A DNA stretch of 64,000 nt from Candidatus Methylomirabilota bacterium (GTDB taxonomy: Bacteria; Methylomirabilota; Methylomirabilia; Rokubacteriales; CSP1-6), in contig DASXSB010000030.1 in assembly GCA_036506275.1 (NCBI GenBank), forward strand, positions 46,683 through 110,682, in the 5' to 3' direction. The notes below the pieces were generated by a model, which saw nothing but the letters and a program-made list of their open reading frames with translations, did no database searches and was not told the DNA's origin. A program made the position numbers and the translations under genes. Numbering within the stretch: the first letter of the stretch is position 1; every line of letters begins with the position of its first letter. Positions 7,157 through 64,000 of this stretch are shown one piece after another.

Positions 7157-7157
7157 G

Positions 7158-8988: not shown

Positions 8989-9363
8989 TCAGGCGGCGAG
9001 AACCCGGCGCACCGTCTCCGTGAGCGAAACGACCGTGAACGGCTTCTGGAGGAACGCGCCCGGCGGGAGCGGACCGCTCTGGCTGACCACGTCCTCGTGG
9101 GGCTGGCCCGAGATGTAGAGGACGCGGGTGGCGGGGCGAGCCCCACGCACCCGTCCCACCAGAGCGGCGGTGCCGAGGCCGGGCATCTTGAGGTCGAGGA
9201 TCATGAGATCGAGGTCTCCGGGATGGGAGACGGCGAGCTTCAGCGCCGCGTCGCCGTCACCGGCTTCCAGAACGCGATATCCCGCCAGGTGGAGGACCTC
9301 GCGGATCAGGCTTCGTATCTCGCCGTCGTCCTCGACGACCAGTACCGTCGCCGCCTCCGTCAC
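8989..9363 (-). CDS. Single-domain response regulator (CheY-like receiver)
   Basis: VLVVEDDGEIRSLI ... DLMILDLKMPG ... YISG receiver motifs; no output domain. The start overlaps the upstream HK stop. Confidence 0.8.
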   Translation of the reverse strand: MTEAATVLVVEDDGEIRSLIREVLHLAGYRVLEAGDGDAALKLAVSHPGDLDLMILDLKMPGLGTAALVGRVRGARPATRVLYISGQPHEDVVSQSGPLPPGAFLQKPFTVVSLTETVRRVLAA

Positions 9364-11294: not shown

Positions 11295-12919
11295 ATCTTT
11301 CGCAGGGGAATGTAGGGGTCGCCGAGGCCGTTCACCTCGACGCTCCGCACGTAGGGCTGGAACACGCGTTCATACGTGTAGTGCCACATGGGAACCACCG
11401 CCGCCTCCTCCACGATGAGCTGCTCGGCGCGGCGATAGAGGGCGACGCGGCGCCCCAGCTCCCGCTCGTTGCGCGCGAGCACGAGAAGGTCGTCGACCGT
11501 CGGATTCGAGTAGCCCATGAAGTTTCGCGGGCTCCGCGAGTGAAAGAGCCGGAACAAGAAATTGTCGGGATCGGGAACGTCCGCATACCAGGCGTAGAGG
11601 AACATCGGCATCTTCCCCTCGCCGAGCTGTCCGGCAAACGTGGGCCAGTCCGTCTGGTACCTGACCTCGGCCGGGATGCCGACGGCGCCGAGATAGCGCG
11701 TCACTGCCTGGTGCTCGGCGACGAGGCGGTCGGTCTTCACGCTGGACCAGATCGTGATCGGCGGCAGCCGGCGCCCATCGGGATAGCCGGCCGCGCGCAG
11801 GAGCTCGCGGGCGCGATCCGGCGCGTAGGTCAGGCCGCCGAGCTGCGGATTGTAGCCGAGCGTGCCCGGCGGAAGGATGCCGTGGGCAGGGTGATAGCGG
11901 TCGAGGAATGTCGTCTGCAAGATCGTGTCGCGATCGATCGCGTGCACGATGGCCTGGCGGACACGGAGGTCGTCGAGCGGCTTCACCCGCGTGTTCAAGC
12001 CGTAGAACCGGACGCTGAACATCGGCCGCCGGATGTACTGGTAGGCGGGGGTGGAGGCACGCGCACCGAGCTTGGCGGGGACGGGACTGTCCTCCAGTCG
12101 CCCCCTCTCGAACTCGCGGTACATCGTGTCGATGGCCTCCCCCGGGAAGATCCGGTACACGATGTGCGCAAGCTTCGGCGGTCCCCCGAAATAGTCGGGA
12201 TTGGCGGCGAGCACGATCTCGCGACCCCGCTCGCGACGGACGAACTTGAACGGGCCCGTGCCCACCGGCTCTTCGCCGAACCGCTCTCCCTTCTGCTCCA
12301 CGATGTCGCGCGGCAGCACCTTCGCGTGACCGACGGCGAGGACCGACACGAACGGCGCCGGCGCCTCCTCGAGCGTGATCTCCACCGTGTAGCGATCGAC
12401 GGCGACGATTCCGGCCACCTGACGAGCCTTGCCTTCCCGAAAATCACGCGCCCCTTTGATGGTCGCGAACAGGTCGGAGGCCCCGGACTTGAGCCGCGGA
12501 TCCAGCAGCCGCGTGAACGAGAAGACCACGTCGTCGGCGGTGACCTCGCGACCATGATGGAACTTGACGCCGGGACGCAGCGTGAACGTCCACGTGAGGC
12601 CATCGCGCGAGGCGCGCCAGAAGTGCGCGAGGGCAGGCGTGATGGCAAGCGTCTGGTCGAATTGCACGAGCCCGTCGAAGACTTGCTCGGACACCGACCG
12701 GCTGTAGACGTCGCTGATGAGGGCGGGGTCGAGGGTGGCGGGGTCGTTGCCGAGCGGACGTCGATACGTCGCGTCCTCGGCGCGGCTCGGACCATCAGCG
12801 GCGGCGGCAGCCGATGCCGCGACGAGGGCGGCGACGACGAAGGCCAGAGTGAAGAGAAAAGGGGAGCCGAGGCTCCCCTTCCTCTCGCCCCGTCGTCGGG
12901 GGCGACCGCCTATCACCAT
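11273..12919 (-). CDS. ABC-type substrate-binding protein, family 5 (peptide/nickel, OppA/DppA-like)
   Basis: Track ORF 11273..13213; start chosen at M99 (nt 12919), giving a signal peptide MVIGGRPRRRGERKGSLGSPFLFTLAFVVAALVAASAAAAADG. The SBP_bac_5-like core (...ANPDYFGGPPKL...) follows. The upstream 98 codons are Arg-rich with no signal peptide. Confidence 0.8.
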   Translation of the reverse strand: MVIGGRPRRRGERKGSLGSPFLFTLAFVVAALVAASAAAAADGPSRAEDATYRRPLGNDPATLDPALISDVYSRSVSEQVFDGLVQFDQTLAITPALAHFWRASRDGLTWTFTLRPGVKFHHGREVTADDVVFSFTRLLDPRLKSGASDLFATIKGARDFREGKARQVAGIVAVDRYTVEITLEEAPAPFVSVLAVGHAKVLPRDIVEQKGERFGEEPVGTGPFKFVRRERGREIVLAANPDYFGGPPKLAHIVYRIFPGEAIDTMYREFERGRLEDSPVPAKLGARASTPAYQYIRRPMFSVRFYGLNTRVKPLDDLRVRQAIVHAIDRDTILQTTFLDRYHPAHGILPPGTLGYNPQLGGLTYAPDRARELLRAAGYPDGRRLPPITIWSSVKTDRLVAEHQAVTRYLGAVGIPAEVRYQTDWPTFAGQLGEGKMPMFLYAWYADVPDPDNFLFRLFHSRSPRNFMGYSNPTVDDLLVLARNERELGRRVALYRRAEQLIVEEAAVVPMWHYTYERVFQPYVRSVEVNGLGDPYIPLRKMWLERRP

Positions 12920-12939
12920 GGACCGATGGAAAGGGCTGA

Positions 12940-13077
12940 CTACTCGCCGCCACCGCCACCGTCGGCATTGCCGATCGCGACGAAAAGCGAGGTCGACCCC
13001 GGCGCGGCCGACTCGATAACGGGTGCGACGAACAAGAACGACGCGATGATCACGACCGCCGCCAGCACTTTCCTCAT
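12940..13077 (-). CDS. Unannotated small ORF (45 aa): putative secreted or membrane peptide MRKVLAAVVIIASFLFVAPVIESAAPGSTSLFVAIGNADGGGGGE
   Basis: Not in the ORF track because it is under the length cutoff. ATG at 13077 is preceded by AAGGGGGA. The N-terminus is signal-peptide-like (MRK then an 18-residue hydrophobic stretch). GC3 is very high, like real genes here. It sits 21 nt upstream of the SBP start and downstream of a sigma-54-like promoter. Coordinates were verified against the overlapping track ORF frame. Confidence 0.3.
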   Translation of the reverse strand: MRKVLAAVVIIASFLFVAPVIESAAPGSTSLFVAIGNADGGGGGE

Positions 13078-13151
13078 GACTCTGTCCCCCTTGTCGACGT
13101 TGTGAGCGCGATGGCCGCCGCGCTCGCTTGACTTCCGGGGGACCGGTCACA

Positions 13152-13166
13152 GCAATTCGATCGCCA
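13152..13166 (-). promoter_or_regulatory. Candidate sigma-54 (-24/-12) promoter TGGCGA-N5-TTGCT reading into the small ORF/SBP/HK/CheY genes
   Basis: The minus strand reads TGGCGATCGAATTGCT. The GG and GC are separated by the canonical 10 nt. It lies about 75 nt upstream of the small-ORF ATG and directly downstream of a sigma-54 activator gene. Confidence 0.3.
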
Positions 13167-13370
13167 ATCGCGGCGTCGATCATCGCGTCCTTCAAAGCGG
13201 CGTTATTGCTCATGCGGCGGCGCGGACACGCGGTGGCCGGTGTGGGACCGGTGTCTCATCACTGGGCAGCGCGACGTGCGAGAAGCCCGCGTCCTCGACG
13301 TAAACGGGCAAGTCATCAGGCGGGAGCGACGCTGCACAGGATCGGTGCAACCTGGCCCGAAAGTGGGCGC

Positions 13371-14795
<1,425 letters not shown>

Positions 14796-27769: not shown

Positions 27770-27829
27770 GCCGTGAGCCTAGCACACGCGAAAACCTCTG
27801 CTGTATACTGACTTGACCGTCACATAACC

Positions 27830-50997: not shown

Positions 50998-52347
50998 GTG
51001 AGGGAGGCGATGTTCCACAAGATCCTGGTCGCGAATCGCGGTGAGATCGCGCTCCGGGTGATCCGCACCTGCCGCGAGCTCGGCATCCGCTCCGTCATCG
51101 CGCATTCCAAGGCCGACGCGAACTCGTTGCCCGTGCGGGTCGCCGACGAGTCGATCTGCGTGGGTCCCGACGATCCGCGCGCGAGCTACCTCAACATCCC
51201 CGCCATCATCTCGGCCGCCGCCATCACCGACAGCGAGGCCATCCACCCCGGATACGGCTTCCTCTCGGAGAATCCCGCCTTCGCCGACATCTGTCGCGCG
51301 TGCGGGCTCGCCTTCATCGGTCCCACGCCGGAAGCCATCCGTCTCATGGGCGACAAGGCGCAGGCGCGACAGATCGCGGGCCAAGCGGGAGTGCCGATCG
51401 TTCCCGGCAGTGACATGCCGCTGAAGGAGGCCGGAGAAGCCGTGGACCTCGCGGAGCGGATCGGCTTTCCGGTGATCTTCAAGGCGGCCGCGGGCGGGGG
51501 CGGGCGGGGCATGCGCATCGTGCGCGAACGCACGGGGGCCGCCCAGGCGTTCGCGGCCTGTCAGTCCGAAGCGGCGGCCGCCTTCGGCTCGTCCGAGATC
51601 TACTGCGAGAAGTTCATCGAGAACGCGCGCCACGTCGAGGTCCAGGTGCTCGGGGACAGGAGCGGGATGCGCGTGCACCTGGGCGAGCGCGATTGCTCGG
51701 TGCAGCGGCGGTATCAGAAGCTGCTGGAGGAGTCTCCGGCTCCTCTGCTGACGGCGGAGACGCGGAGCGGGCTCCACCGCGCCGCCCTCACCGCCGCCGC
51801 CGCCGTCAACTACGTGAGCGCGGGGACGGTGGAGTTCCTCGTCGACGGCAACGGGCGCTTCTACTTCATCGAGATGAACACGCGCATCCAGGTCGAGCAC
51901 CCGGTGACGGAGATGCTGACCGGGATCGACCTCGTGCGCGAGCAGATCCGGATCGCGGCGGGCGAGCCGCTCGGGTACCGCCAGGACGCCGTCACCTTCA
52001 CCGGTCACGCCCTGGAGTGCCGCGTGAACGCCGAGGATCCGGAGACGTTCGCGCCGAGCGCGGGCCGGATCACGGCCTGGCTCCCGCCCGGCGGCTTCGG
52101 CGTGCGCGTGGACAGCCACCTCTTCGCCCCCTACGCGGTGCCGCCCTTCTACGACTCCCTCATCGCCAAGGTGATCGTGCACGGGCGCAACCGCGACGAG
52201 GCCATCGCCCGCATGCAGCGCGCGCTCGCCGAAACGGTGGTGGAGGGCGTGAAGACCACCATTCCGTTTCTGCTCAAGGTCCTCGCCGATCCCGGATTCC
52301 GTGCGGGCGGCTTCACGGGCGCCGACGTCGCCCGGCTGCGCGGATGA
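50998..52347 (+). CDS. accC: Acetyl-CoA carboxylase biotin carboxylase subunit
   Basis: KILVANRGEIALRVIRTCRELGI ... the ATP-grasp motifs. An alternative start is M5 at 51010. Confidence 0.95.
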   Translation: MREAMFHKILVANRGEIALRVIRTCRELGIRSVIAHSKADANSLPVRVADESICVGPDDPRASYLNIPAIISAAAITDSEAIHPGYGFLSENPAFADICRACGLAFIGPTPEAIRLMGDKAQARQIAGQAGVPIVPGSDMPLKEAGEAVDLAERIGFPVIFKAAAGGGGRGMRIVRERTGAAQAFAACQSEAAAAFGSSEIYCEKFIENARHVEVQVLGDRSGMRVHLGERDCSVQRRYQKLLEESPAPLLTAETRSGLHRAALTAAAAVNYVSAGTVEFLVDGNGRFYFIEMNTRIQVEHPVTEMLTGIDLVREQIRIAAGEPLGYRQDAVTFTGHALECRVNAEDPETFAPSAGRITAWLPPGGFGVRVDSHLFAPYAVPPFYDSLIAKVIVHGRNRDEAIARMQRALAETVVEGVKTTIPFLLKVLADPGFRAGGFTGADVARLRG

Positions 52348-52973
52348 TCGATCCCAGCCTCTACGTCGTCCTCGACCGCGCCGCCGCCCGCGGCCGGGAC
52401 CTCGGCGACATCCTCGACGCCGCGGTGGGCGCGGGATGCCGCATGGTCCAGCTCCGCGAAAAGGAGTGGCCGTCGGGACGCTTGCTGCCGGTGGCGGAGC
52501 GACTGCGCCAGCGGTGCCGGGCGGCCGGCGTCACGTTCATCGTCAACGATCGCGTCGACCTCGCGCTCGCCGTGGACGCGGACGGCGTCCACCTCGGCCA
52601 GGACGATTTGCCGCCCCGCGCCGCGCGCCCGCTTCTGCGCCGCGGGATGCTGCTCGGGCTTTCCACCCACAGCGTGGCCCAGGCGCGGGCCGCCGCCGCC
52701 GACGGCGCCGACTACATCGCGGTCGGCTCGATGTTCCCGACCGTGACGAAATCGGACTTTCAGCTCGTGGGGCCGGAGCTGATCCGGAAACTCCGGGCCG
52801 AGATCCGCGTTCCACTGATAGGGATCGGAGGTATCACCTCCGAAAACGTGGCCGAGGTCATCGGCGCCGGCGCGGACGGGGTCGCCGTCATCTCCGCCGT
52901 GTGCGGAGCGTCCGACCCCGCGGCCGCCGTGCGCGCGTTCCTCACCGGCATCCAGAGAGCGCGCGCGGCTTGA
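52344..52973 (+). CDS. thiE: Thiamine-phosphate synthase
   Basis: Start ATG 52344 overlaps the accC stop (ATGA). LYVVLD ... TFIVNDRVDLALAVDADGVHLGQDD ... YIAVGSMFPT ... IGIGGI. Confidence 0.85.
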   Translation: MIDPSLYVVLDRAAARGRDLGDILDAAVGAGCRMVQLREKEWPSGRLLPVAERLRQRCRAAGVTFIVNDRVDLALAVDADGVHLGQDDLPPRAARPLLRRGMLLGLSTHSVAQARAAAADGADYIAVGSMFPTVTKSDFQLVGPELIRKLRAEIRVPLIGIGGITSENVAEVIGAGADGVAVISAVCGASDPAAAVRAFLTGIQRARAA

Positions 52974-52997
52974 CCACCGGGGACCGGTCGCTATAAT
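52970..52997 (+). promoter_or_regulatory. Sigma-70-type promoter TTGACC-N16-TATAAT with an embedded palindrome ACCGGggACCGGT, upstream of the second liv operon
   Basis: GCTTGACCACCGGGGACCGGTCGCTATAATG. RBS CAGGAGGGGA lies before the SBP ATG at 53046. Confidence 0.5.
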
Positions 52998-53045
52998 GTC
53001 GGCGCGCAAAAACCTTTGCCCTACCTCACCCAGGAGGGGACATCC

Positions 53046-54242
53046 ATGAGCATCAAGTCCGTTCGCGCTCTCACCGCCCTGCTCGCCGTGATCGCACTGC
53101 TCGCGGTACCGGGCAGTGGAACGTTGCAGGCGCAGGGCAAAGGCACCATCAAGATCGCGACCCAGAGTCCGCTCAGCGGCGGGCAGGCGGCGCTCGGAGA
53201 GGGCATCAAGCTCGGTACCCAGCTCGCCCTCGAGAAGCTCAAGGCCAACGTCGAGAAGCAAGGCTTCAAGGTCGAGCTGGTGCCGTTCGACGACCAGGCC
53301 AAGCCCGACGTCGGCGTCGCCAACGCGCGGAACATCATCGCCGACAAGGAGATCATGGTCGTGATCGGCCACTTGAACTCCGGCGTGGCCATCCCCTCCT
53401 CGGAGGTCTACAAGGAAGTCAACCTCGCGATGATCTCGCCCGCCAACACCAACGAGAAGATCACCGACCGCGGCTATCCCAACGTCTATCGCGTGTGCGG
53501 GCGCGACGACGTGCAGGGTCCGGTGGGCGCCGAGTTCGCGGCGGGGACGCTCAAGGCGAAGTCCGTGTACGTCATCCACGACAAGACGACGTACGGACAG
53601 GGCGTGGCGGAAGCGTTTCGTCAGGATGCCGAGAAGAAGGGCGTGAAGGTGGTCGGGTTCGAGGGCACGGAAGAGAAATCGAACTTCGATCCGATCATCA
53701 CCCCCATCCGCGCCAAGAATCCCGACGTCATCTACTTCGGCGGCATCTACGACCAGGGGGCGCCGTTCTTCAAGCAGGCGCGCGAGAAGGGCGTGAAGTC
53801 CAAGTTCCTCGGGCCCGACGGCATGGACTCCTCCGACCTCGTGAAGATCGCGGGCAAGGCGGTGCTCGGGATGAACTACACCACCGCCGCCGCCCCCGCC
53901 TCCAGCCCGCAGGCCAAGCAGTTCGCGGAGGAGTACAAGAAGAAGTTCGGGAAGAACCCCGAACCGTACGCGGCGGAAGCGTACGTCTCCACCGCCATCG
54001 CGCTCAAGGCGCTGGAGTCGGTCACCACCGGCGGGAAGGCGCCCACGCGGGAGGCCGTCAGCACCGCCATCCGCAAGGTCAAGTACAGCGGCATGACGGG
54101 CAGCATCGACTTCGACGACAAGGGTGATCCGAAGAAGGCCTCCTACTACGTGATGGAGGTCTCGACCGACAACCCGGAGAAGTGGTCAGAGAACAAGGAG
54201 GCCAAGCGCCTCGCCATCGCGGCTCCTCCGCTGAAGAAGTAA
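53046..54242 (+). CDS. ABC transporter substrate-binding protein, LivK/LivJ (Peripla_BP_6) family, copy 2
   Basis: Start at M11 of track ORF 53016... Signal peptide MSIKSVRALTALLAVIALLAVPGSG. Core reads IKIATQSPLSGGQAALGE. Confidence 0.85.
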   Translation: MSIKSVRALTALLAVIALLAVPGSGTLQAQGKGTIKIATQSPLSGGQAALGEGIKLGTQLALEKLKANVEKQGFKVELVPFDDQAKPDVGVANARNIIADKEIMVVIGHLNSGVAIPSSEVYKEVNLAMISPANTNEKITDRGYPNVYRVCGRDDVQGPVGAEFAAGTLKAKSVYVIHDKTTYGQGVAEAFRQDAEKKGVKVVGFEGTEEKSNFDPIITPIRAKNPDVIYFGGIYDQGAPFFKQAREKGVKSKFLGPDGMDSSDLVKIAGKAVLGMNYTTAAAPASSPQAKQFAEEYKKKFGKNPEPYAAEAYVSTAIALKALESVTTGGKAPTREAVSTAIRKVKYSGMTGSIDFDDKGDPKKASYYVMEVSTDNPEKWSENKEAKRLAIAAPPLKK

Positions 54243-54343
54243 GTCCGCGGAACCCCCGCGAGGGGCGGATGCGCACGCCGAATCAGCCGAACGGTTGCCG
54301 ACGGCGCCGCGCTTCCGCCCCTCGGCTTCTCTAGCGCTGCTCG

Positions 54344-55315
54344 ATGGACCTGCCGCTCCTGTTCGGGATCTTTCCCGTCGTGCTCCTCGACGGGATCATC
54401 CTCGGCTTCATGTACGCGCTCATCGCCCTCGGCTACACGATGGTGTACGGAGTGCTCGAGTTCATCAACTTCGCGCACTCCGAGATCTTCATCGTGGGCG
54501 CCTTCGTCGGCGTCGAGGTCCTCCTCGGCCTCCAGCGCATGGGGGCCCTCGAGCGGGTGCCGTGGCTCGTGGTCCTCCTCGGCGTGCTGCTGGCCGGCAT
54601 GACCGTGAGCGCCCTCCTCGCCGTCACCATCGAGCGCGTCGCCTACCGCCCCCTGCGCGCGGCCCCCCGGCTCATTCCCCTCATCTCCGCCATCGGGATC
54701 TCGTTTTTTCTGCAAGACCTGATTCGGCTCGTCGAAAGCGTGTGGCGGAACGCCTTCAACCTCGTCTATCCGAGCATGGAGCCGCTCAATGTGCGCTTCG
54801 AGCTGACGTCGACGGTGGACGTGTCCGTCAAATCGCTCGTGGTCATCACGGCCGCCCTCGCCATGCTCTGGCTCCTCCGCTTCGTCGTGAATCACACGAA
54901 GATCGGGATGGCGATCAGGTCGGTGGCGGAAGACCAGGCCGCGGCCAGCCTCATGGGCGTCAATGTCAACGCCACCATCTCGCTCACGTTCCTGATCGGC
55001 GGCGCCATGGGGGGCGCGGCGGGCGTGCTGTTCGGCGTGCAGTACGGGCTCATCAACCCGTACAGCGGCTTCATTCCCGGTCTGAAGGCGTTCACGGCGG
55101 CCGTGCTGGGCGGCATCGGCAACATCCCGGGCGCCATGGTGGGCGGGCTCGTCCTGGGGCTCCTGGAGGCGTTTGCCGCGTCCTACCTCTCGTTGCTCAC
55201 GGGCGGGGCCTTCGGCGCCGAGTACAAGGACATCTTCGCGTTCTCCGTCCTCATCCTCATCTTGATCTTGAGGCCCAAGGGTCTGCTCGGCGAAGTGGTG
55301 CGGGAACGCGCGTGA
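54344..55315 (+). CDS. ABC permease LivH-like, copy 2
   Basis: GIILGFMYALIALGYTMVYGVLEFINFAHSE. Confidence 0.85.
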   Translation: MDLPLLFGIFPVVLLDGIILGFMYALIALGYTMVYGVLEFINFAHSEIFIVGAFVGVEVLLGLQRMGALERVPWLVVLLGVLLAGMTVSALLAVTIERVAYRPLRAAPRLIPLISAIGISFFLQDLIRLVESVWRNAFNLVYPSMEPLNVRFELTSTVDVSVKSLVVITAALAMLWLLRFVVNHTKIGMAIRSVAEDQAAASLMGVNVNATISLTFLIGGAMGGAAGVLFGVQYGLINPYSGFIPGLKAFTAAVLGGIGNIPGAMVGGLVLGLLEAFAASYLSLLTGGAFGAEYKDIFAFSVLILILILRPKGLLGEVVRERA

Positions 55316-56550
55316 TCAGGGTCGCGGGCGCCATCCTTCTCCTCGCCGTGTCGGGCTGGGCCGTCGCCACCTTCCCGCGCTCCATTCTCGTCTTCCTGCT
55401 CTTCCAGGGCTCCGTGCTCCTCGTCTACCTGACGCCCATGCCGAGGTGGCTGCGCGTCGCGTTGCTGGCCATCGCGCTCCTCGTGATGATGCCGGTCATC
55501 GGCGCCTTCAACGGCTACTACCTCGAGGTCGCCACCCAGGTCGGCATCTTCGTCGCCCTCGCCCTCGGCCTCAACATCGTGGTCGGGCTCGCCGGCCTCC
55601 TCGACCTCGGCTACGTGGCGTTCTTCGCGGTGGGCGCCTATGCGTGGGCGATCCCGGGATCACCGCATGCAAACCTGATCTTCGGGAGTGGGTTTCCGCT
55701 GCCGCCGGTCGCCTTCTACGCGTTCCTCGTCATCGGGCTGGTGATCGCAGCGGTGACGGGGATCCTCCTCGGGCTCCCGGTCCTGCGACTTCGCGGCGAC
55801 TATCTCGCCATCGTCACCCTCGGCTTCGGCGAGGTGATCCGCGTCCTCGCCAACAATCTGGACAAGCCGATCAACCTCACCAACGGCCCCAAGGGCATCA
55901 CGCCGATCACGCGTCCCCCCGCGCTCCTCGGCCTCTCCTATCCGGAGTTCTTCTATTTCCTGGTGCTCGCCATCGTCGTCGTCGTGATCCTCGTCAATCG
56001 CCGCCTCGAGGACTCCCACATCGGGCGGGCGTGGGAGGCGATCCGGGAGGACGACCTCGCCGCCCAGGCCATGGGCGTGCCGCTCGTGCGCTCGAAACTC
56101 CTCGCCTTCGCGTGCGGGGCCTCCTTTGCGGGTGTCATGGGCGTCGTCTTCTCCGCCAAGCAGGTCTTCATCAACCCGGAGTCGTTCACGTTCCTCGAGT
56201 CCATCGGCGTTCTCGCCATGGTCATTCTGGGCGGCATGGGCTCCATCCCGGGGGCGGTGGTGGGAGCGACCGTAGTCACGGTCCTCAATCTTCAGGTCCT
56301 CAAAGGCCTCTCCCTCTGGCTGAACGAGCTGAAGAACGCCGGCGTCACCATCCTCGGTTTCAACCTCGCGAACCTCCCCACCCAGTTCGAGCCGGCCAAG
56401 TACGAGCGGATGATCTTCGGCATCATCCTCGTTCTGATGATGATCTTCCGGCCGCAGGGCATCTTCCCCGCCCGCCGCCGCGAGCGCGAGCTGGCCGCGC
56501 CCGAGGAAAACGTGGTCAAGTCCACCGCGCAAGCGCAGGCGATGCCGTGA
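55312..56550 (+). CDS. ABC permease LivM-like, copy 2
   Basis: Reading frame of track ORF 54295..; GTG 55312 overlaps the livH2 stop (GTGA). It begins VIRVAGAILLLAV.... Polytopic. Confidence 0.85.
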   Translation: MIRVAGAILLLAVSGWAVATFPRSILVFLLFQGSVLLVYLTPMPRWLRVALLAIALLVMMPVIGAFNGYYLEVATQVGIFVALALGLNIVVGLAGLLDLGYVAFFAVGAYAWAIPGSPHANLIFGSGFPLPPVAFYAFLVIGLVIAAVTGILLGLPVLRLRGDYLAIVTLGFGEVIRVLANNLDKPINLTNGPKGITPITRPPALLGLSYPEFFYFLVLAIVVVVILVNRRLEDSHIGRAWEAIREDDLAAQAMGVPLVRSKLLAFACGASFAGVMGVVFSAKQVFINPESFTFLESIGVLAMVILGGMGSIPGAVVGATVVTVLNLQVLKGLSLWLNELKNAGVTILGFNLANLPTQFEPAKYERMIFGIILVLMMIFRPQGIFPARRRERELAAPEENVVKSTAQAQAMP

Positions 56551-57327
56551 GCGCGCTCTTCGAAGCGCGCGACGTCACCAAGCGCTTCGGCGGCCTCACC
56601 GCCTTGAGCCGCGTCGACTTCACGCTCGACGCCGGCATCGCCTCCATCATCGGCCCCAACGGCGCCGGGAAGACGACGCTCTTCAACGTCTTCACGGGGT
56701 TGTATGCGCCGGACACGGGTTCCGTCGCCTTCCGCGGCCGCTCGCTGCTCGGCCTCCGGCCCGATCAGATCACGGCTCTCGGCGTCTGTCGCACCTTCCA
56801 GAACATCCGGCTCTTCGGCAACATGACCGCCGTCGAGAACGTCCTCGTAGGCATGCACGCGCGCGTCCGCCTCGGACTCGCCGACGTCTTGCTGCGCGGC
56901 CCCCGCTTCCGCAACGAGGAGTCCGCGCTCTGGCGCGCCGCTGCCAGCCTCCTCGACCGCGTGGGGCTCCACGCGAGGGGGAACACGGTGGCGCGCAATC
57001 TCGCCTACGGCGATCAGCGCCGCCTCGAGATCGCGCGCGCGCTCGCCTCGGAGCCGGCACTCCTGCTCCTCGACGAGCCCACGGCGGGCATGACGCAGGG
57101 AGAGGCGCGGAGCCTCATGGACTTGCTGCGGCGGCTGGTGGCGGACCTCGGGCTCGCCATCCTGCTCATCGAGCACAACATGCGAGTGGTGATGCAGGTG
57201 TCGGACCGCGTCACCGTGCTCGACCACGGCGAGAAGATCGCGGAGGGACAGCCCGCCGACGTCCAGGCCAACCCTCGCGTCATCGAGGCCTATCTCGGCA
57301 CGCGCACGGGCGTGCGGCGGGATCGCC

Positions 57328-57341
<14 letters not shown>
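56547..57341 (+). CDS. ABC ATPase LivG-like, copy 2
   Basis: C-terminal part of track ORF 55446..; GTG 56547 overlaps the livM2 stop (GTGA). Walker A GPNGAGKTT and LAYGDQRRLEIARA are present. Confidence 0.85.
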
Positions 57342-58025
<684 letters not shown>

Positions 58026-58029
<4 letters not shown>

Positions 58030-58487
58030 CGATGCGCGAAGGTCTCGACTTCGAGCGACACACCGTCGGCGCCGTGTACCAGACGCTCGCGCGCACGGTG
58101 TCGGAGACCGACATCGTGACCTTCGTGAACCTGTGCGGGTTCACGGAACCGCTCTTCATGGACATGGAGTACGTGGCGCGAGAGTCGGTCTTCGGGCGCC
58201 GCGTCGCCCCCGGCGCCCTCACCTTCGCGCTCTCGGAAGGCCTCATCATGCAGACGGGCCTCATTCACGGGACGGGGATGGCCTACCTCGGCGGCGACAT
58301 CAGGGTGGCGGCGCCCGTGCTGGCGGGGGACACGATCCGCGTGGAGATCGAGGTCGCCGAGAAGCGCGAGACGCGCAAGTCCGATCGAGGCATCGTCACC
58401 TACCGGCACCGTGTGCTGAACCAGCGTGGCGAGCTGGTGCTGGAAGCCCGCGTCCAGCGCATGATCCGTCGCACCGCCGCCGCCTGA
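58026..58487 (+). CDS. MaoC-like (R)-specific enoyl-CoA hydratase / hot-dog fold dehydratase
   Basis: Hot-dog fold pattern ...FVNLCGFTEPLFMDMEY...GRRVAPGALT.... GTG start overlaps the livF2 stop. Confidence 0.8.
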
Positions 58488-58500
58488 GTCTTCACCCGCG

Positions 58501-59475
58501 GTGCTGGTCCTTTCCCGCCCCGACCTCGAGCGTCTGCTGCCGCCGCTCGAGCTCGTTGACGCTCTCGCGGAGGCGTTCCGCGTTTATGCGCGCGGGAGCG
58601 CCTCCGTGCCGCTGCGCACTTCCACTCCGGTCACCGCCGATGGGCTGCTCTTGCTGATGCCGGCGGCCGCGCCCGAGGATCGTCTCGGCCTCGGCGTCAA
58701 GCTCGTCACCTATTACGGTGGCAATGCCGCGCGCGGCCGTCCCACCCTTCACGCCACCTACTGCCTCATGGACGGAGAAACCGGCGCGCCGCTGGCGCTT
58801 CTCGAAGGTACCTTCCTCACGGCGCTGCGCACGGGAGCGACGTCGGCGCTGGCGGCCCGACTGCTGGCACGGCCCGACTCCGAGCGCGCGGTGTGCTTCG
58901 GAGCCGGCGTGCAGGCGCGCTTCCAGCTCCGGTGCCTCGCCGCCGTTCTGCCCCTGAAGGGCGTCACCGTGATCGGCCGCGACGCGACCCGCGCCCGGCG
59001 GTTCTGCGACCTCATGACGGCCGAGCTCGGCATCCCGGTGGAGACGGGAGCCGCGCACGAGGCCGTCCCCCGCGCCGACCTCATCACGTGTGCGACCACG
59101 TCGGCCACGCCCGTCCTCTTCGGCGCCGCCATCCGTCCTGGAACGCACGTGGATGCCGTGGGCGCCTTTCGCGCCACCGACCGCGAGGTCGACGCCGAGA
59201 CCGTGCGGCGAGCGCGCGTGGTGGTCGACACCTATGCCGCCGGCCTCGAGGAGGCGGGCGACGTCATTCTCGCCTTTCGCGAGGGCGTGGTGGACAGCGC
59301 GCACCTCGTCGCGGAGCTGGCGGAGCTGGTGACCGGCGCCAAGCGAGGCCGTCTCTCTCCCGACGACATCACGCTGTTCAAGTCGGTGGGTTTCGCTCTC
59401 GAGGATCTGGCGGGGGCCCGGCTCGCGTACAATCGCGCCATGGCGCAAGGGATCGGCACCGAGGTGCGATTGTGA
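58501..59475 (+). CDS. Ornithine cyclodeaminase / mu-crystallin family protein
   Basis: A Rossmann motif (VCFGAGVQAR) is present. The OCD_Mu_crystallin-like layout is present. Confidence 0.8.
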   Translation: MLVLSRPDLERLLPPLELVDALAEAFRVYARGSASVPLRTSTPVTADGLLLLMPAAAPEDRLGLGVKLVTYYGGNAARGRPTLHATYCLMDGETGAPLALLEGTFLTALRTGATSALAARLLARPDSERAVCFGAGVQARFQLRCLAAVLPLKGVTVIGRDATRARRFCDLMTAELGIPVETGAAHEAVPRADLITCATTSATPVLFGAAIRPGTHVDAVGAFRATDREVDAETVRRARVVVDTYAAGLEEAGDVILAFREGVVDSAHLVAELAELVTGAKRGRLSPDDITLFKSVGFALEDLAGARLAYNRAMAQGIGTEVRL

Positions 59476-60011
59476 GCGCGCGCGTGGTCCAGGTGAGCGT
59501 CTCGCCCGGCGGCGTGCCCAAGACCGCGGTGGAGGGGGCGCGCGTCGGCAGGCTCGGCCTCGAAGGCGATGGCCACCGCGACCTCCGCCATCACGGTGGC
59601 CCCGAGCGCGCCGTCTGTCTCTATCCGATGGAGATGATCGACGCTCTCGTCGCGGAGGGCCATCCGGTGACGCCGGGAGCGCTGGGCGAGAACCTGACCG
59701 TCTATGGCCTACCGTGGAAGAGCGTCGTTCCTGGAGTCCGGCTTCAGATCGGTGAGGCGGTCCTGCTCGAGGTCACGCGCTACACCAGCCCGTGCCGGAA
59801 CATCGCGGGCGCGTTCGCCGACGGCGAGTACTCGAGGGTGTCGGAGAAGCTCCGGCCGGGATGGAGCCGCGTGTACGCGCGCGTCCTCGTCGAGGGCTCC
59901 GTGCGCCGTGGTGATGCGGTCCGGCTTGTCCCGCTCGGCGGAGAGAGCGGAACAGGGCCGACGGGCGCGGGGGCCAAGCGCGCCGACGCCGGCGCCTCCG
60001 TCCGCGGGTGA
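59472..60011 (+). CDS. MOSC-domain protein (YiiM-like)
   Basis: C-terminal part of track ORF 58893..; GTG 59472 overlaps the upstream stop. The MOSC-like beta-barrel pattern reads ...GDGHRDLRHHGGPERAVCLY...GENLTVYGL. Confidence 0.7.
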   Translation: MSARVVQVSVSPGGVPKTAVEGARVGRLGLEGDGHRDLRHHGGPERAVCLYPMEMIDALVAEGHPVTPGALGENLTVYGLPWKSVVPGVRLQIGEAVLLEVTRYTSPCRNIAGAFADGEYSRVSEKLRPGWSRVYARVLVEGSVRRGDAVRLVPLGGESGTGPTGAGAKRADAGASVRG

Positions 60012-61177
60012 AGCGCACCGCCGACGTCGTCATCATCGGCGGCGGCGTCACCGGCGCCTCCATCGCGTTTCACCTCGCCACTCGCGGCCTGCGTGACGTC
60101 GTCATCCTGGAGCGGAAATTCCTCGGCGCCGGCGCCACCGGCCGCTCGGTGGGCATCATCCGACAGCTCTATCCGACACCGGAAACCACGGCCATGGTCC
60201 GTCGGTCGCTCGCCGTCTTCCAGAGCTTCGGGGAATCCGTGGGCGGCCACGCCGGCTACGTGCGCTGCGGCGCCCTCATCGCGGTGGCGCCCGCGATGCG
60301 GTCGAAGCTCGAGCTGACGCTCGCGCGGCAGCGCGAGCTCGGCGTCAAGGCGGAAATCTTGAAACCGGAAGACGTCGCGCGCGTGGAGCCGCGCATCGAT
60401 CCCGAAGGCGCGGGCGCCGTGCTCTACGAGCCCGACTCCGGCTACGGCGATCCGGTGGCGGTCACGACCGCCTACGCGGCGGCGGCGCGCCGCCTCGGTG
60501 TCATCGTCGAGCAAGGCGTGGAGGTGACCGGCATCGTGCACGACGCGGCCGGCGTGAGCGCCGTGGTGACGGCGGCCGGCGAGTGCGTCGCCTCCCCTGT
60601 CATCGTGAACGCGGCCGGGCTCTGGTCACCGGCGGTGGCGCGACTCGTCGGGCTCGATCTTCCGATCGTCGTCGGGCGCCATCCGGTCTTCGTCGTCGAG
60701 CGCGGGCCTGCGTTCGGCGCCGATCACCCGGTGTACCTCGATCTCGCCGGCGGCACCTATGTGCGGCCCGAGACAGGAGGGCTGACGCTCACGGGGTCGC
60801 TCACCGACGACGAGAGTCAGCATCCGATCGACCCGGAGCTGCTCGGCACGTCGCCGGGCTTCGACGAGGCGGAAGTCGTGCTGGAACGGACGGGGCGCGC
60901 GCTCCCGAAGCTCGGCGACGCGCAGTATCGGCGGGGATGGGTCGGAGCGTTCGACATCACGCCGGACTGGATGCCGATCCTCGACGCCTCGCCCGTGCGC
61001 GGCTTCTACGTGGCGACCGGTATGAGCGGCCACGGCTTCAAGCTCTCCCCCGCCGTGGGAGAACTCATGGCTGCGTTGATCCTCGGAGAGCCGCCGCCGG
61101 TGAGCCCGGCGCCGTTTCGGCTCGCGCGCTTCGCGGATACCAGGGTCGGCGGCACGTTCGTCTCCTCGTATCTCTGA
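60008..61177 (+). CDS. FAD-dependent oxidoreductase (DAO family; sarcosine oxidase beta / D-amino-acid dehydrogenase-like)
   Basis: The N-terminal dinucleotide-binding motif DVVIIGGGVTGASIAFHLA is present. GTG start overlaps the MOSC stop. Confidence 0.8.
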   Translation: MKRTADVVIIGGGVTGASIAFHLATRGLRDVVILERKFLGAGATGRSVGIIRQLYPTPETTAMVRRSLAVFQSFGESVGGHAGYVRCGALIAVAPAMRSKLELTLARQRELGVKAEILKPEDVARVEPRIDPEGAGAVLYEPDSGYGDPVAVTTAYAAAARRLGVIVEQGVEVTGIVHDAAGVSAVVTAAGECVASPVIVNAAGLWSPAVARLVGLDLPIVVGRHPVFVVERGPAFGADHPVYLDLAGGTYVRPETGGLTLTGSLTDDESQHPIDPELLGTSPGFDEAEVVLERTGRALPKLGDAQYRRGWVGAFDITPDWMPILDASPVRGFYVATGMSGHGFKLSPAVGELMAALILGEPPPVSPAPFRLARFADTRVGGTFVSSYL

Positions 61178-61236
61178 TCGGACTCCGATGCGGAGCGCCG
61201 CTGATCGCGGCCGGGGGCGTGTTGTACACTGCGGCC

Positions 61237-63336
61237 ATGTCGTCACGTCTCGGCGTCGACATCGGCGGGACGTTCACCGATCTGGTCGTCGTCGACGAGG
61301 CGACGGGCGCCTTGAGCGTCGGCAAGGTCCTGACGAATCCGAAGGACTTCGCCCTCGCCGTGGACCAGGGCATCCAGGCGTTGCTCGGCGACGCCGGCCT
61401 CGACGCTCGCACGCTGCGCGCGATCGTGCACGGCACCACGCTCGCCACCAACGCCCTCATCGAGCGCAAGGGCGCGCGCACGGCGCTGCTCACCACGGCC
61501 GGCTTCCGAGACGCCCTCGAGATCCGCCACGAAGGGCGTTACGACATGTACGACCTCTTCATCGATCCACCCGCGCCGCTGGTGCCGCGTCACCTGCGGC
61601 GGGAGGTGCGTGAGCGCCTCCTTCCCGACGGGAGCGTGCTCGAGCCGCTGGACGAGGCGTCGGCGCGCGGGGTCGTCTCCGAGCTGGTCGGGGACGGCGT
61701 GGAGGCGATCGCCATCTGTCTCCTCCACGCCTACGTCAACCCCGCGCACGAGCGGCGTCTGGCCGAGCTGGTGAAGGAGATGGCGCCCGCGCTTCCCGTG
61801 TCCTGCTCGTCGGAGGTCGTTCCCGAGATCCGCGAGTACGAGCGGGCGTCCACGACCACCGCCAACGTCTACGTGATCCCGCTCATGGCGCGCTACCTCG
61901 AGGACCTCGAGCGCCGCCTCGCCGACCTCGGCATTCCCGGGCAGCTCTACATCATGCAATCGTCAGGCGGCATCGCGCTCCCGGCCCATGCCCGCCGCCT
62001 TCCCATTCGCCTGGTCGAGTCCGGCCCCGCCGCGGGCGCGCTGGCGGCGGCGCGCGCGGCCGCCGACCACGGAGAGCCACGACTGCTGTCGTTCGACATG
62101 GGAGGTACCACGGCCAAGGCGTGCGTCATCGACGGCGGTGCCCCCCTCGTGGCGCGAGAGTTCGAGGTGGCGCGGGCGGACCGTTTCAAGAAGGGCTCCG
62201 GGCTCCCGCTGCGCACGCCCGTGATCGAGCTGATCGAGATCGGCGCCGGCGGCGGCTCCATGGCGCGCGTCGACCGCATGGGTCTCCTCAAGGTGGGGCC
62301 GGACAGCGCGGGCGCCGACCCCGGTCCCGCATGCTACGGGCTGGGGGGCCGGCTGCCGACGGTCACCGATGCCGACCTCCTCCTCGGATATCTCGACGCC
62401 GCGTTCTTCCTCGGCGGCCGCATGCGGCTCGATCGCGAGGCAGCTCGACGCGCCATCGAGGAGCACGTGGCGCGCCCGCTCGGGCTCGACGTGCCGGCGG
62501 CCGCGTGGGGCATCCATCGCGTCGTGAACGAGAACATGGCGGCGGCCGCGCGGATCCACGGCATCGAGCGCGGCAAGGACCTCCGCGCGTACCCGCTCTT
62601 CGCGTTCGGCGGCGCCGGGCCCGTCCACTGCTGGCAGGTCGCGAAAATCCTGAAACTGCCGCGGATCATCCTTCCCTTCGGCGCGGGAGCGATGTCGGCG
62701 TACGGCCTGCTCAGCGCGCCTCTCGCCTTCGACTTCGTCCGTACCGGTCACGAGCGCCTCGACGCGCCCGACTGGACGGCCATCAACGCGCGCTTCGCGG
62801 AAATGGAAGCGGAGGGTCGAGAGCTGTTGCGGCGGGCCGGCGTCGCGGACGGCGACGTCCGTCTCGCACGGATCGCCGAAATGCGCTACGTGGGACAGGG
62901 CCACGAGGTGGAAGCGCGCCTCCCCGGCCGAACCCTGTCGGCGGCGAGCCTGCCCGCCATCACGAGCGCCTTCGAGACCGGGTACCGGGCCCTCTACGCG
63001 CGTTTGCCCCAGGGCGTACCGATCGAGGTCCTCAACTGGCGGCTCACCGCGGCCGGACCCGTCCCCGCCCTCACGCTGGCGCCGGCGGTGGCACCCCGCG
63101 CGAGCGCGATGGTCAAGGGACGACGCTCCGCGTATTTCGCGCAGACGGGGGCCTTCGTGGACGTCCCCGTCTATGACCGTTATGCGCTCGCGCCGGGGAC
63201 GACGTTCAACGGCCCCGCGATCGTGGAGGAACGCGAGTCCACCGCCGTGCTCGGACCGGGAGCACGCTGTCGCGTCGACGACGCCCTCGCCCTCATCGTC
63301 GACATGCCGTCGGGGAGCGACGCGTGGACCCGGTGA
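61237..63336 (+). CDS. Hydantoinase/oxoprolinase family protein, A subunit (HyuA-like)
   Basis: Start at M219 of track ORF 60583.. (MSSRLGVDIGGTFTDLVVVDE...). Hydantoinase_A N-terminal and central domains are present. Confidence 0.85.
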   Translation: MSSRLGVDIGGTFTDLVVVDEATGALSVGKVLTNPKDFALAVDQGIQALLGDAGLDARTLRAIVHGTTLATNALIERKGARTALLTTAGFRDALEIRHEGRYDMYDLFIDPPAPLVPRHLRREVRERLLPDGSVLEPLDEASARGVVSELVGDGVEAIAICLLHAYVNPAHERRLAELVKEMAPALPVSCSSEVVPEIREYERASTTTANVYVIPLMARYLEDLERRLADLGIPGQLYIMQSSGGIALPAHARRLPIRLVESGPAAGALAAARAAADHGEPRLLSFDMGGTTAKACVIDGGAPLVAREFEVARADRFKKGSGLPLRTPVIELIEIGAGGGSMARVDRMGLLKVGPDSAGADPGPACYGLGGRLPTVTDADLLLGYLDAAFFLGGRMRLDREAARRAIEEHVARPLGLDVPAAAWGIHRVVNENMAAAARIHGIERGKDLRAYPLFAFGGAGPVHCWQVAKILKLPRIILPFGAGAMSAYGLLSAPLAFDFVRTGHERLDAPDWTAINARFAEMEAEGRELLRRAGVADGDVRLARIAEMRYVGQGHEVEARLPGRTLSAASLPAITSAFETGYRALYARLPQGVPIEVLNWRLTAAGPVPALTLAPAVAPRASAMVKGRRSAYFAQTGAFVDVPVYDRYALAPGTTFNGPAIVEERESTAVLGPGARCRVDDALALIVDMPSGSDAWTR

Positions 63337-64000
63337 CGCTCGAGATCTGCTGGAACCGGCTCATCGGCGTCGTCAACGAGCAGGCAGCGGCGCTCCAGCG
63401 GACGTCGTTCACCTCGATCGTGCGCGAGGCCGGTGACCTCTCCGCGGGCGTGTTCGACCGCCGCGGCGACATGGTCGCGCAGGCGGTGACCGGCACGCCC
63501 GGTCACATCAACTCCATGGCCCTCGCCGTCAAGCACGTGCTGCGCGCTCACCCCGTCGCCACGCTCGCCCCCGGCGACGTGCTCATCACGAACGATCCCT
63601 GGCAGACCTCCGGCCACCTGAACGACGTCACCATCTGCTCGCCGGTCTTTCGCGGCGACGACTGCGTCGCCTTCTTCGCGTCCACGTGCCACACCGCCGA
63701 CATCGGGGGCCACGTCCTCTCCGCGGAGGCGCGCGACGTCTACGAGGAAGGTCTCCAGATCCCGATCATGAAGCTCTACGAGGGAGGCCGTCCCAACGAC
63801 ACGCTGATCGCGTTGATCCGCGCCAACACCCGCGTGCCGGACATGGTCCTCGGCGACTTTCACGCGCAGGTGGCGGGAGGAGCGGTGGGCGGCGAGCGCC
63901 TGCTCGAGTTCATGGCGGAATTCGGCCTCGAGCGTCTCGAGCCCCTCGCGGACGAGATCATCGGACGGACGGAAAGGGCAATGCGAGATTCGATCCGCGC
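63324..64000 (+). CDS. Hydantoinase/oxoprolinase family protein, B subunit (HyuB-like), 3' partial
   Basis: GTG 63324 (VDPVTLEICWNRLIGVVNEQAAALQRTSFTSIVREAGDLSAGVFD...) is a Hydantoinase_B N-terminal pattern. It runs off the window end. Confidence 0.8.
   Translation, partial: MDPVTLEICWNRLIGVVNEQAAALQRTSFTSIVREAGDLSAGVFDRRGDMVAQAVTGTPGHINSMALAVKHVLRAHPVATLAPGDVLITNDPWQTSGHLNDVTICSPVFRGDDCVAFFASTCHTADIGGHVLSAEARDVYEEGLQIPIMKLYEGGRPNDTLIALIRANTRVPDMVLGDFHAQVAGGAVGGERLLEFMAEFGLERLEPLADEIIGRTERAMRDSIR

Follow-up and report, generated by a model that had tools for sequence, protein, structure and literature searches.

A possible three-module arrangement of importer, flavoprotein and lactamase genes in a Rokubacteria chromosome

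The window analysed here is a 64 kb stretch of a chromosome (~70% G+C) that its relatives assign to the Rokubacteria/Methylomirabilota. Eleven plus-strand genes run from 53046 to the window end at 64000. They encode an ATP-binding cassette (ABC) importer of the Liv type, a MaoC-like protein, an OCD/mu-crystallin family protein, a minimal MOSC protein, an FAD-dependent amine oxidoreductase of the DAO family, and the subunits HyuA and HyuB of a hydantoinase/oxoprolinase-family lactamase. An earlier sequence-only reading described these genes as one uptake-to-catabolism chain behind a single promoter. Comparison with about 160 related loci suggests, with moderate confidence, that they form three adjacent and separable modules in a conserved core-genome neighbourhood: an importer, a flavoprotein-centred oxidation set, and an independent lactamase. 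The single chain was not borne out. hyuA has its own conserved promoter and directly follows the DAO gene in only 13 of 58 relatives, and other genes are inserted at both module junctions.

Genes were called by a three-position GC log-odds caller and by manual inspection, and both agreed on the eleven genes. Pfam confirmed every family named in the sequence-only reading; none of the proteins reached an equivalog cut-off of NCBIfam. The related loci were collected in two independent samples. The hyuA-anchored sample contained 80 genome loci; the DAO-anchored sample contained 83 distinct loci, 58 of which have at least 1.5 kb beyond DAO. Gene composition was counted in 41 DAO-anchored loci, and the livF|maoC junction in 37. 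The features are as follows.

52970..52997, + strand: promoter P1, TTGACC (-35), 16-nt spacer and TATAAT (-10), an 11/12 consensus match
53046..54242, + strand: gene of a LivJ/LivK/Atu2422-type solute-binding protein (SBP), 398 aa, with signal peptide (Peripla_BP_6, 4.8e-63)
54259..54324, + strand: GC-rich intercistronic hairpin with 16-nt arms and a 34-nt inner structured loop (inverted repeat and folding)
54344..55315, + strand: livH-type permease (BPD_transp_2, 1.6e-39; LivH model, 251 bits)
55312..56550, + strand: livM-type permease (BPD_transp_2, 2e-44; LivM model, 264 bits), 4-nt GTGA overlap with livH
56547..57341, + strand: livG-type ATPase (ABC_tran and BCA_ABC_TP_C; LivG model, 279 bits), 4-nt overlap with livM
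57328..58029, + strand: livF-type ATPase (ABC_tran; LivF model, 271 bits), 14-nt overlap with livG
58032..58487, + strand: MaoC-like single hotdog-fold protein, 151 aa (MaoC_dehydratas, 2.6e-15)
58501..59475, + strand: OCD/mu-crystallin family protein (OCD_Mu_crystall, 1.8e-71)
59472..60011, + strand: minimal MOSC protein, 179 aa, beta-barrel only, with a low-complexity tail (MOSC, 1.5e-23)
60008..61177, + strand: FAD-dependent amine oxidoreductase (DAO, 5.4e-70)
61225..61230, + strand: -10 element TACACT of promoter P2, 6 nt before the hyuA ATG, with a leaderless transcript predicted
61237..63336, + strand: hyuA, ATP-binding large subunit of a hydantoinase/oxoprolinase-family lactamase (Hydant_A_N, Hydantoinase_A, Hydant_A_C)
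63324..64000 (window end), + strand: hyuB, N-terminal 225 aa of the metal-dependent ring-opening subunit (Hydantoinase_B, 1.3e-73), 13-nt overlap with hyuA

Analysis of the DAO-anchored loci showed that the second module varies around a constant core. The order MaoC-OCD-MOSC-DAO was found in 14 of the 41 loci, MaoC-MOSC-DAO in 17, MaoC-OCD-DAO in 3, MaoC-DAO in 4, and other arrangements in 3. The MaoC-like gene is present in 38/41 loci, the MOSC gene in 31/41 (76%), and the OCD gene in 17/41 (41%). MaoC and DAO stand beside Liv in 30/37 loci, despite many surrounding rearrangements. The constant core is Liv, the MaoC-like gene and DAO. The livF|maoC junction is broken in 7/37 loci, where the inserted genes are a toxin-antitoxin pair or glycosyltransferase and methyltransferase genes on the other strand. 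One relative (L083) has toxin-antitoxin pairs both in and after the block: PhdYeFM with a small partner without a Pfam match (7265-7980), and PhdYeFM with PIN (13542-14215).

The lactamase genes are separable from the block. Among the 58 DAO-anchored loci, hyuA was seen directly after DAO in 13, within 10 kb after insertions in 7, and not at all in 38 (the sequence extends downstream for 3 kb or more in 21 of these, and for 10 kb in 6). In the hyuA-anchored sample, hyuAB (70-83% identity) adjoins the Liv-MaoC-(OCD)-(MOSC)-DAO block in about one third of the Rokubacteria loci, with direct DAO-hyuA adjacency in about ten; in many other loci, none of the block genes occurs within 10 kb upstream. 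The insertions between DAO and hyuA include opposite-strand TAXI-TRAP genes, a glycosyltransferase/asparagine synthase/methyltransferase set, and a class III aminotransferase gene. Two further loci (L025 and L075) keep Liv-MaoC(-MOSC), and an unrelated minus-strand gene replaces DAO directly before hyuA.

Both promoters were located by footprinting among the relatives. The hyuA gene has no Shine-Dalgarno sequence. The arrangement TA[CGA]ACT-N6-8-in-frame ATG/GTG was found in 57 of 77 distinct Rokubacteria upstream regions of hyuA, against 0.05 expected from shuffles, and it does not depend on which gene precedes hyuA. In some loci, TTGACG also lies 17 nt upstream. A conserved TA[C/G/A]ACT near the start codon is the signature of a leaderless transcript; therefore hyuAB is predicted to have its own conserved transcription start, and these upstream regions identify P2 as a leaderless promoter of its own. 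TGTA[CGT]ACT occurs at just one other place in the window (TGTATACT, 27802-27809), at the head of a run of 36 plus-strand open reading frames (ORFs) and 21 nt before an ATG at 27831.

The gene junctions were less telling than they first appear. The sequence-only reading listed five consecutive start/stop overlaps of the GTGA or ATGA kind and took them as translational coupling of the transporter to the enzymes. The junction sequences confirmed four GTGA overlaps (livH/livM, livM/livG, OCD/MOSC and MOSC/DAO). The fifth, at livF/maoC, requires a GTG start at 58026 and is probably a start-codon artefact. The maoC orthologs have their own Shine-Dalgarno sequence and start at an ATG aligned with 58032, which lies 2 nt past the livF stop in the window; no overlap was found in any of 43 orthologous loci, where the gap is 6-176 nt. 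The larger gaps in relatives are filled by REP-like palindromes, of the form CCCCTCACCC..CCCTCTCCCC..GGGGAGAGGG..GGGTGAGGGG in the spacers of L029, L032, L035, L089, L095, L100, L121, L133 and L165; the window has only its 2-nt gap there, unlike these spacers. Two overlaps had not been listed, 14 nt at livG/livF and 13 nt at hyuA/hyuB. The description of almost no intergenic space was also inaccurate: the SBP-livH spacer is 101 nt long with a strong hairpin, and the DAO-hyuA spacer is 59 nt long with the second promoter.

Four-base overlaps also occur at 10 of the 38 remaining same-strand junctions of the window (26%), among them efp/accB and accC/thiE, and one relative has a 4-nt overlap of maoC with a PMT_2 glycosyltransferase gene. 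Because unrelated genes overlap in the same way, a 4-nt overlap is default packing and gives no evidence of shared function, and the coupling argument was not upheld. Co-directionality is not special to these genes either, since they are the end of a run of 36 consecutive plus-strand ORFs that starts at 27857. The genes on the 5' side are pilM to pilQ, aroC, aroB, a TPR gene, efp, accB, accC and thiE. In relatives, hyuB is followed by a sigma-54 regulator gene on the other strand, and by genes for thioredoxin, trpE, trpG, thiL and CBS-domain proteins. These are housekeeping genes, and hyuB is therefore the last gene of the block.

A reading without any shared function was also considered. The Liv system would be a housekeeping general amino-acid importer, and the downstream genes would be unrelated and kept in order only by slow rearrangement of the core genome. 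The co-directional housekeeping run, the overlaps between unrelated genes, the tolerated insertions at livF|maoC, and the restriction of the relatives to one phylum all fit this reading. However, MaoC and DAO stay together in 38/41 loci and mostly beside Liv despite the rearrangements around them. The start of DAO is also consistently coupled to the preceding gene. The MOSC/DAO overlap is conserved in 61/65 loci, and MaoC/DAO overlap in 7/8 loci without MOSC (for comparison, livG/livF overlap in 44/48 loci). In addition, conservation among the four module proteins is highest in the MaoC-like one (65-93% identity). Absence of any shared function is thus considered unlikely.

The promoter before the SBP gene, as given in the sequence-only reading, was confirmed. 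P1 was the sole sigma-70-like site found in 12 kb, and its -35 element overlaps the thiE stop codon. A search for the exact pattern TTGACC-N16-TATAAT gave a single hit in the 64 kb window and no hit in 100 shuffles. TTGAC[CG]-N16-TATAAT (N19 in two loci) is kept 5' of the SBP gene in nine orthologous loci, where CGCTATAATG is the -10 block kept together with the -35 element. Since these elements are kept behind thiE as well as behind a glycosyltransferase/TPR gene, P1 can be regarded, from its conservation, as a real promoter. The palindrome in its spacer had been proposed as a likely operator, and this was not supported. ACCGGGGACCGGT is an inverted repeat with 5-bp arms that contains the 8-bp palindrome GACCGGTC. 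The spacer sequence is different in every ortholog, and comparable small palindromes occur in about 8% of the 16-nt stretches of the window.

These results bear on the single eleven-gene operon. There, a cyclic or N-substituted amino acid or its lactam would be imported, HyuAB would open the ring, and the DAO, OCD, MOSC and MaoC proteins would process the product, all under one palindrome-controlled promoter. In this genome the genes follow one another in tight, colinear order, and the terminator scan found no plus-strand terminator-like site within the block. DAO-hyuA adjacency recurs in both samples, and relatives of the DAO and OCD proteins act on cyclic imino acids. However, hyuA has its own leaderless promoter, hyuAB and the DAO block each occur without the other, and both module junctions are interrupted in relatives by unrelated or opposite-strand genes. 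Moreover, the palindrome is unconserved and of a common kind, the MaoC-like protein lacks catalytic residues, and OCD is absent from 59% of the relatives. The single operon is therefore rather improbable.

The importer has the complete component set of the LIV-I/HAAT type: a Peripla_BP_6 SBP, two BPD_transp_2 permeases, and two ATPases, one with a BCA_ABC_TP_C tail. The SBP gene has a Shine-Dalgarno sequence, AGGAGGGG, at 53033-53040. The SBP scored 238.4 bits against the LivJ/K model (PRK15404), below the cut-off of 477, and only 39.9 and 32 bits against the UrtA models (cut-offs about 493), so that the urea/amide type was not indicated. The best PDB matches were Atu2422 (9e-60; 36% identity), followed by LivK/LivJ (about 1e-45; 33% identity to LivK). 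In LivJ/K, the residues that we take to hold the alpha-amino and carboxylate groups are Ser79, Thr102, Tyr150 and Glu226. The equivalents of Ser79, Thr102 and Tyr150 are identical in the SBP; Asp takes the place of LivJ Glu226, which is also the case in Atu2422, and Leu at position 77 is shared with LivJ/K. The pocket is thus mixed, and these conserved backbone-binding residues say nothing on side-chain specificity. These similarities place the SBP in the LivJ/LivK/Atu2422 clade, whose members bind alpha-amino acids in general, and outside the urea/amide clade; it is predicted to bind an amino acid. The sequence-only reading had held that the substrate is probably not a simple branched-chain amino acid. 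The substrate may or may not be of that simple kind: the SBP belongs to an amino-acid clade, and it does not show the tight clustering with Leu/Ile/Val binders that would have refuted the claim. Atu2422 itself binds Ala, Val, Pro and gamma-aminobutyric acid (PMC3656012).

The system resembles E. coli LIV-I (LivJ/LivK-LivHMGF) and Agrobacterium Atu2422 with its Bra-type transporter in the five-component HAAT importer, the SBP fold, and the backbone-binding residues. It differs from them in the low SBP identity (33-36%) and in scores below the equivalog cut-offs. Many ABC operons have a hairpin between the binding-protein gene and the membrane genes, as was found here. The SBP-livH spacer (54243-54343) folds at -56.8 kcal/mol (z -3.6), and none of 200 shuffles was as stable. 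Of about 30 orthologous loci whose spacer could be measured, nearly all have a strong hairpin of unrelated sequence in the corresponding position (including L006, L008, L009, L011, L026, L032, L075, L082, L083, L119, L129 and L138). The structure is conserved and the sequence is not. No U tract was found at the hairpin. The hairpin may serve for partial termination or for stabilising the mRNA, and so set how much binding protein is made relative to the membrane components. A second Liv-type ABC system lies at 4468-8965 of the window, in the different order of binding protein, two ATPases and two permeases.

The MaoC-like protein had been counted among the enzymes of the chain, and the alignment speaks against this. 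It shares with PhaJ and the MaoC dehydratase family a single hotdog fold and a length of about 150 aa, and its match to the family is significant. Alignment to PhaJ (5cpg and 1iq6) showed that the GDxNPxH motif of the hydratases is replaced by GFTEPLF. The orthologs have GF[TNS..]E[PS]LF in 75/75 cases, with both the catalytic Asp and the catalytic His replaced by Phe. An (R)-specific enoyl-CoA hydratase was therefore rejected. Unlike the case of PhaJ, no CoA ligase or transferase gene is nearby. Its residues suggest that the protein is probably a non-catalytic or differently catalytic partner.

The OCD-family protein scored 279.6 bits against the pyrroline-2-carboxylate (Pyr2C)/piperideine-2-carboxylate (Pip2C) reductase model NF004793 (cut-off 322). 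Its best PDB match was TlLhpI of Thermococcus litoralis (6t3e, 3.4e-81). Ornithine cyclodeaminase uses the catalytic triad Glu56-Asp228-Lys232 in P. putida numbering (PMC4141209). The corresponding positions here, aligned via L52-V224-A228 of TlLhpI, are Leu51-Phe223-Asp227, and the Leu at the TlLhpI Leu52 position is kept. Ornithine cyclodeaminase (EC 4.3.1.12) was rejected because the triad is absent; a cyclic ketimine (Pyr2C/Pip2C) reductase is probable by similarity. Residues 159-161 are Gly-Arg-Asp where TlLhpI has Asp159, which is said to specify NAD(H). The protein may prefer NADPH, judging from these residues.

The flavoprotein belongs, by its matches, to the group of SoxB, the L-proline dehydrogenase (ProDH) beta subunit and DMGDH, well ahead of the D-amino-acid dehydrogenases. 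The PDB matches were DMGDH (3.5e-39), P. horikoshii ProDH beta (1y56_B, 4.3e-37), SoxB (1e-31) and DauA (7e-19). Among the NCBIfam models, the soxB subfamily (146.9 bits, cut-off 529) and SolA (134 bits) were both below the cut-off. No gene for SoxA/D/G or for ProDH alpha was found at the locus. The adjacent thiE gene prompted a comparison with ThiO glycine oxidase; this was rejected, as the score of 106.5 bits is below both the cut-off (250.8) and the SoxB/SolA scores, and the DAO gene lies behind a promoter separate from thiE. Judged from their nearest solved structures, the DAO and OCD-family proteins point to secondary or cyclic amino acids, in line with the sequence-only reading.

A parallel is found in the proline/hydroxyproline cluster of Thermococcus litoralis, where a triad-less OCD-family reductase is also paired with a flavoprotein of the ProDH-beta/SoxB group (PMC4141209). 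In Thermococcus, TlLhpI is clustered with L-proline dehydrogenase genes, and it acts on Pyr2C, proline, pipecolate and N-methyl-alanine (PMC4141209). This parallel gives some support to the cyclic or N-substituted amino-acid idea. Unlike that cluster, the locus showed no proline-racemase-family dehydratase/epimerase gene and no ProDH alpha gene, the MaoC-like and MOSC genes are added, and OCD is dispensable in most relatives.

The same two proteins could also be read as a D-to-L conversion. The DAO protein would be a D-amino-acid or D-proline dehydrogenase that makes Pyr2C (or Pip2C from D-lysine/D-pipecolate), and the OCD-family reductase would yield L-proline or L-pipecolate. A coupling of this kind has been suggested in related clusters (PMC4141209). 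Pyr2C/Pip2C reductases are the closest relatives of the OCD-family protein, and no other Pyr2C source was seen in the locus. However, the DAO protein matches DMGDH, L-ProDH beta and SoxB much better (1e-39 to 1e-31) than the D-arginine dehydrogenase DauA (7e-19) or the D-proline dehydrogenase model (34 bits), and OCD is missing in 59% of the relatives that keep DAO. We regard this conversion as doubtful.

The MOSC protein was compared with YiiM, an N-hydroxylaminopurine reductase. It matches the YiiM structure 5yhh (1.9e-16) with the MOSC beta-barrel, and the invariant Cys and the equivalents of the cofactor-contact residues Arg55, Ala56 and Asn87 are aligned; its TSPC is aligned with QPC of gsYiiM and SPC of ecYiiM. 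However, it is without the C-terminal helical module of YiiM, which carries the phosphate contacts of the cofactor (Ser200 and Trp201 in ecYiiM; PMC5818509). It scored 54.6 bits against the YiiM equivalog model (cut-off 294), and, also unlike YiiM, its gene overlaps a flavoprotein gene. A MOSC-DAO fusion was looked for among the top 150 representatives listed, and a DAO domain was found in none of the ten long ones scanned with Pfam. Close MOSC relatives (P0133-P0238) are fused to GNAT, DinB_2, class I methyltransferase and TYW2-like domains; these fusions hint at roles in small-molecule detoxification or modification. In several MOSC proteins of about 430 aa, the C-terminal half gave no Pfam match.

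The flavoprotein, MOSC and MaoC-like proteins, whose genes are coupled, might also form one complex, in which the flavoprotein and the molybdenum-cofactor MOSC protein would exchange electrons and act on N-oxygenated or secondary-amine amino acids imported by Liv. Either an amine dehydrogenase would pass electrons to the MOSC cofactor, or the flavoprotein would be the long-sought electron donor of a YiiM-type N-reductase. This complex is considered very unlikely.

The third module has the features of a hydantoinase/oxoprolinase A/B pair. HyuA contains the three domains of the A subunit. Its PDB matches were 7hk5 (1.5e-124), the best one, labelled N-methylhydantoinase, and 6yra (6e-117). The start of hyuB was picked by ortholog alignment (M-E/D-P-V-T-L-E). 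The part of HyuB inside the window (225 residues) has identical residues at all four metal-ligand positions of CapB, Asp41, His99, Asp101 and His124 (CapB: PMC8453981). The pair thus resembles CapAB of Pseudomonas jessenii and the OplAB-type 5-oxoprolinases in its two unfused subunits, overlapping genes, three-domain A subunit, and four metal ligands in B (PMC8453981). Unlike CapAB, HyuA scored only 557.5 bits against the caprolactamase alpha model (CapA, NF050156; cut-off 1000), the promoter is leaderless, and the neighbours in relatives are variable, with TAXI-TRAP or other Liv genes. A creatinine/N-methylhydantoin route, with HyuAB as N-methylhydantoinase and DAO as sarcosine oxidase, would agree with the label of the best HyuA match and with soxB as the best NCBIfam match of DAO, but it is highly improbable, as no creatinine deaminase or N-carbamoylsarcosine amidase was found in the locus or the related loci examined, hyuAB and DAO are separable, and the scores are all below the family cut-offs.

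In the three-module reading, which we favour, P1 as a sigma-70-type promoter would drive an amino-acid ABC importer of the LIV-I/HAAT type, and the hairpin after the SBP gene would probably keep the binding protein in excess over the membrane parts. The second module would normally be read through from the first. It would be an oxidation set around the SoxB/L-proline-dehydrogenase-like DAO protein, whose start is coupled to the preceding gene, with the MaoC-like protein as a constant partner and the MOSC protein and the TlLhpI-like reductase as optional additions. Its most likely job would be the oxidation of imported small secondary-amine or cyclic amino acids (proline, pipecolate, or sarcosine-like), and the reductase would return cyclic ketimines to the L-imino acid. 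HyuAB would be an ATP-dependent lactam hydrolase of the 5-oxoprolinase/caprolactamase type, under its own leaderless promoter. It would adjoin the other modules without being a required step of their pathway. The analyses show the gene calls and families, the two promoters (by footprinting), the modularity and the residue losses, whereas the substrates, the joint transcription of the first two modules and the hairpin's role are inferred.

Several points weigh against the three modules. The substrates are assigned by the nearest relative only, and the DAO, OCD, MOSC and HyuA proteins are below the curated equivalog thresholds. Direct DAO-hyuA adjacency recurs in about one quarter to one third of the relatives, and, as there is no terminator-like site between DAO and hyuA, hyuAB may also be read through from P1 in this genome. 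All relatives come from one phylum, and the conserved order may be partly inheritance and not selection. No Pyr2C source (a dehydratase/epimerase of the proline racemase family) was found among the annotated window genes, about half of the ORFs having been scanned with Pfam. The partner subunits of the heteromeric SoxB and ProDH enzymes are absent.

The analyses demonstrate no new kind of system, and the finding is fairly ordinary. It serves mostly as a caution: where genomes are compact and GC-rich, as in Rokubacteria, genes share a direction and overlap by 4 bases by default, and such an arrangement cannot be read as a pathway. Comparison across relatives splits the apparent eleven-gene chain into three modules. 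The results might help the annotation of an uncultured phylum that is abundant in soil. They provide a footprinted sigma-70-type promoter, a leaderless promoter, a hotdog protein without the catalytic pair that accompanies a SoxB-like flavoprotein, and a minimal MOSC protein gene-coupled to that flavoprotein. No account of this gene cluster in Rokubacteria was found in the literature searched. Exact sequence look-ups gave no match for HyuA and the OCD-family protein; LivH gave a single match, an 8.2 kb metagenome contig identical to the window. The Rfam scan of 52000-64000 found no riboswitch and no other RNA family.

Some side observations concern the neighbours of hyuAB. TAXI-TRAP genes (DUF1850, an NMT1_3 binding protein, and a fused DctM permease) are frequent between DAO and hyuA, in most cases divergent from the latter (L082, 11179-12601; L083, 11413-13455; also L009, L037, L044 and L128). 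This transporter may really belong with hyuAB. In a second group of relatives (L026, L027, L035, L028, L053, L060 and L064), a different complete Liv-type ABC system directly follows hyuB, with its own binding protein, two permeases and two ATPases. Cultured Amycolatopsis (L073-L081, for example L079, 5472-16603) have a 57%-identical hyuAB in a tight array with genes for GST-like, DAO-family and PNPOx-like proteins, a TPP enzyme, an SDR protein, a GntR regulator, and a class III aminotransferase. These loci were rejected as orthologous context, since the gene set is different and the DAO-family gene is only 33% identical. The array is a different and possibly tractable hyuAB pathway.

Elsewhere in the window, at 9360-14795 on the minus strand, an sCache/HAMP/PAS histidine kinase gene overlaps a family-5 solute-binding protein gene by 4 nt, beside a sigma-54-dependent response regulator gene. 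These genes may form a binding-protein-dependent sensing system.

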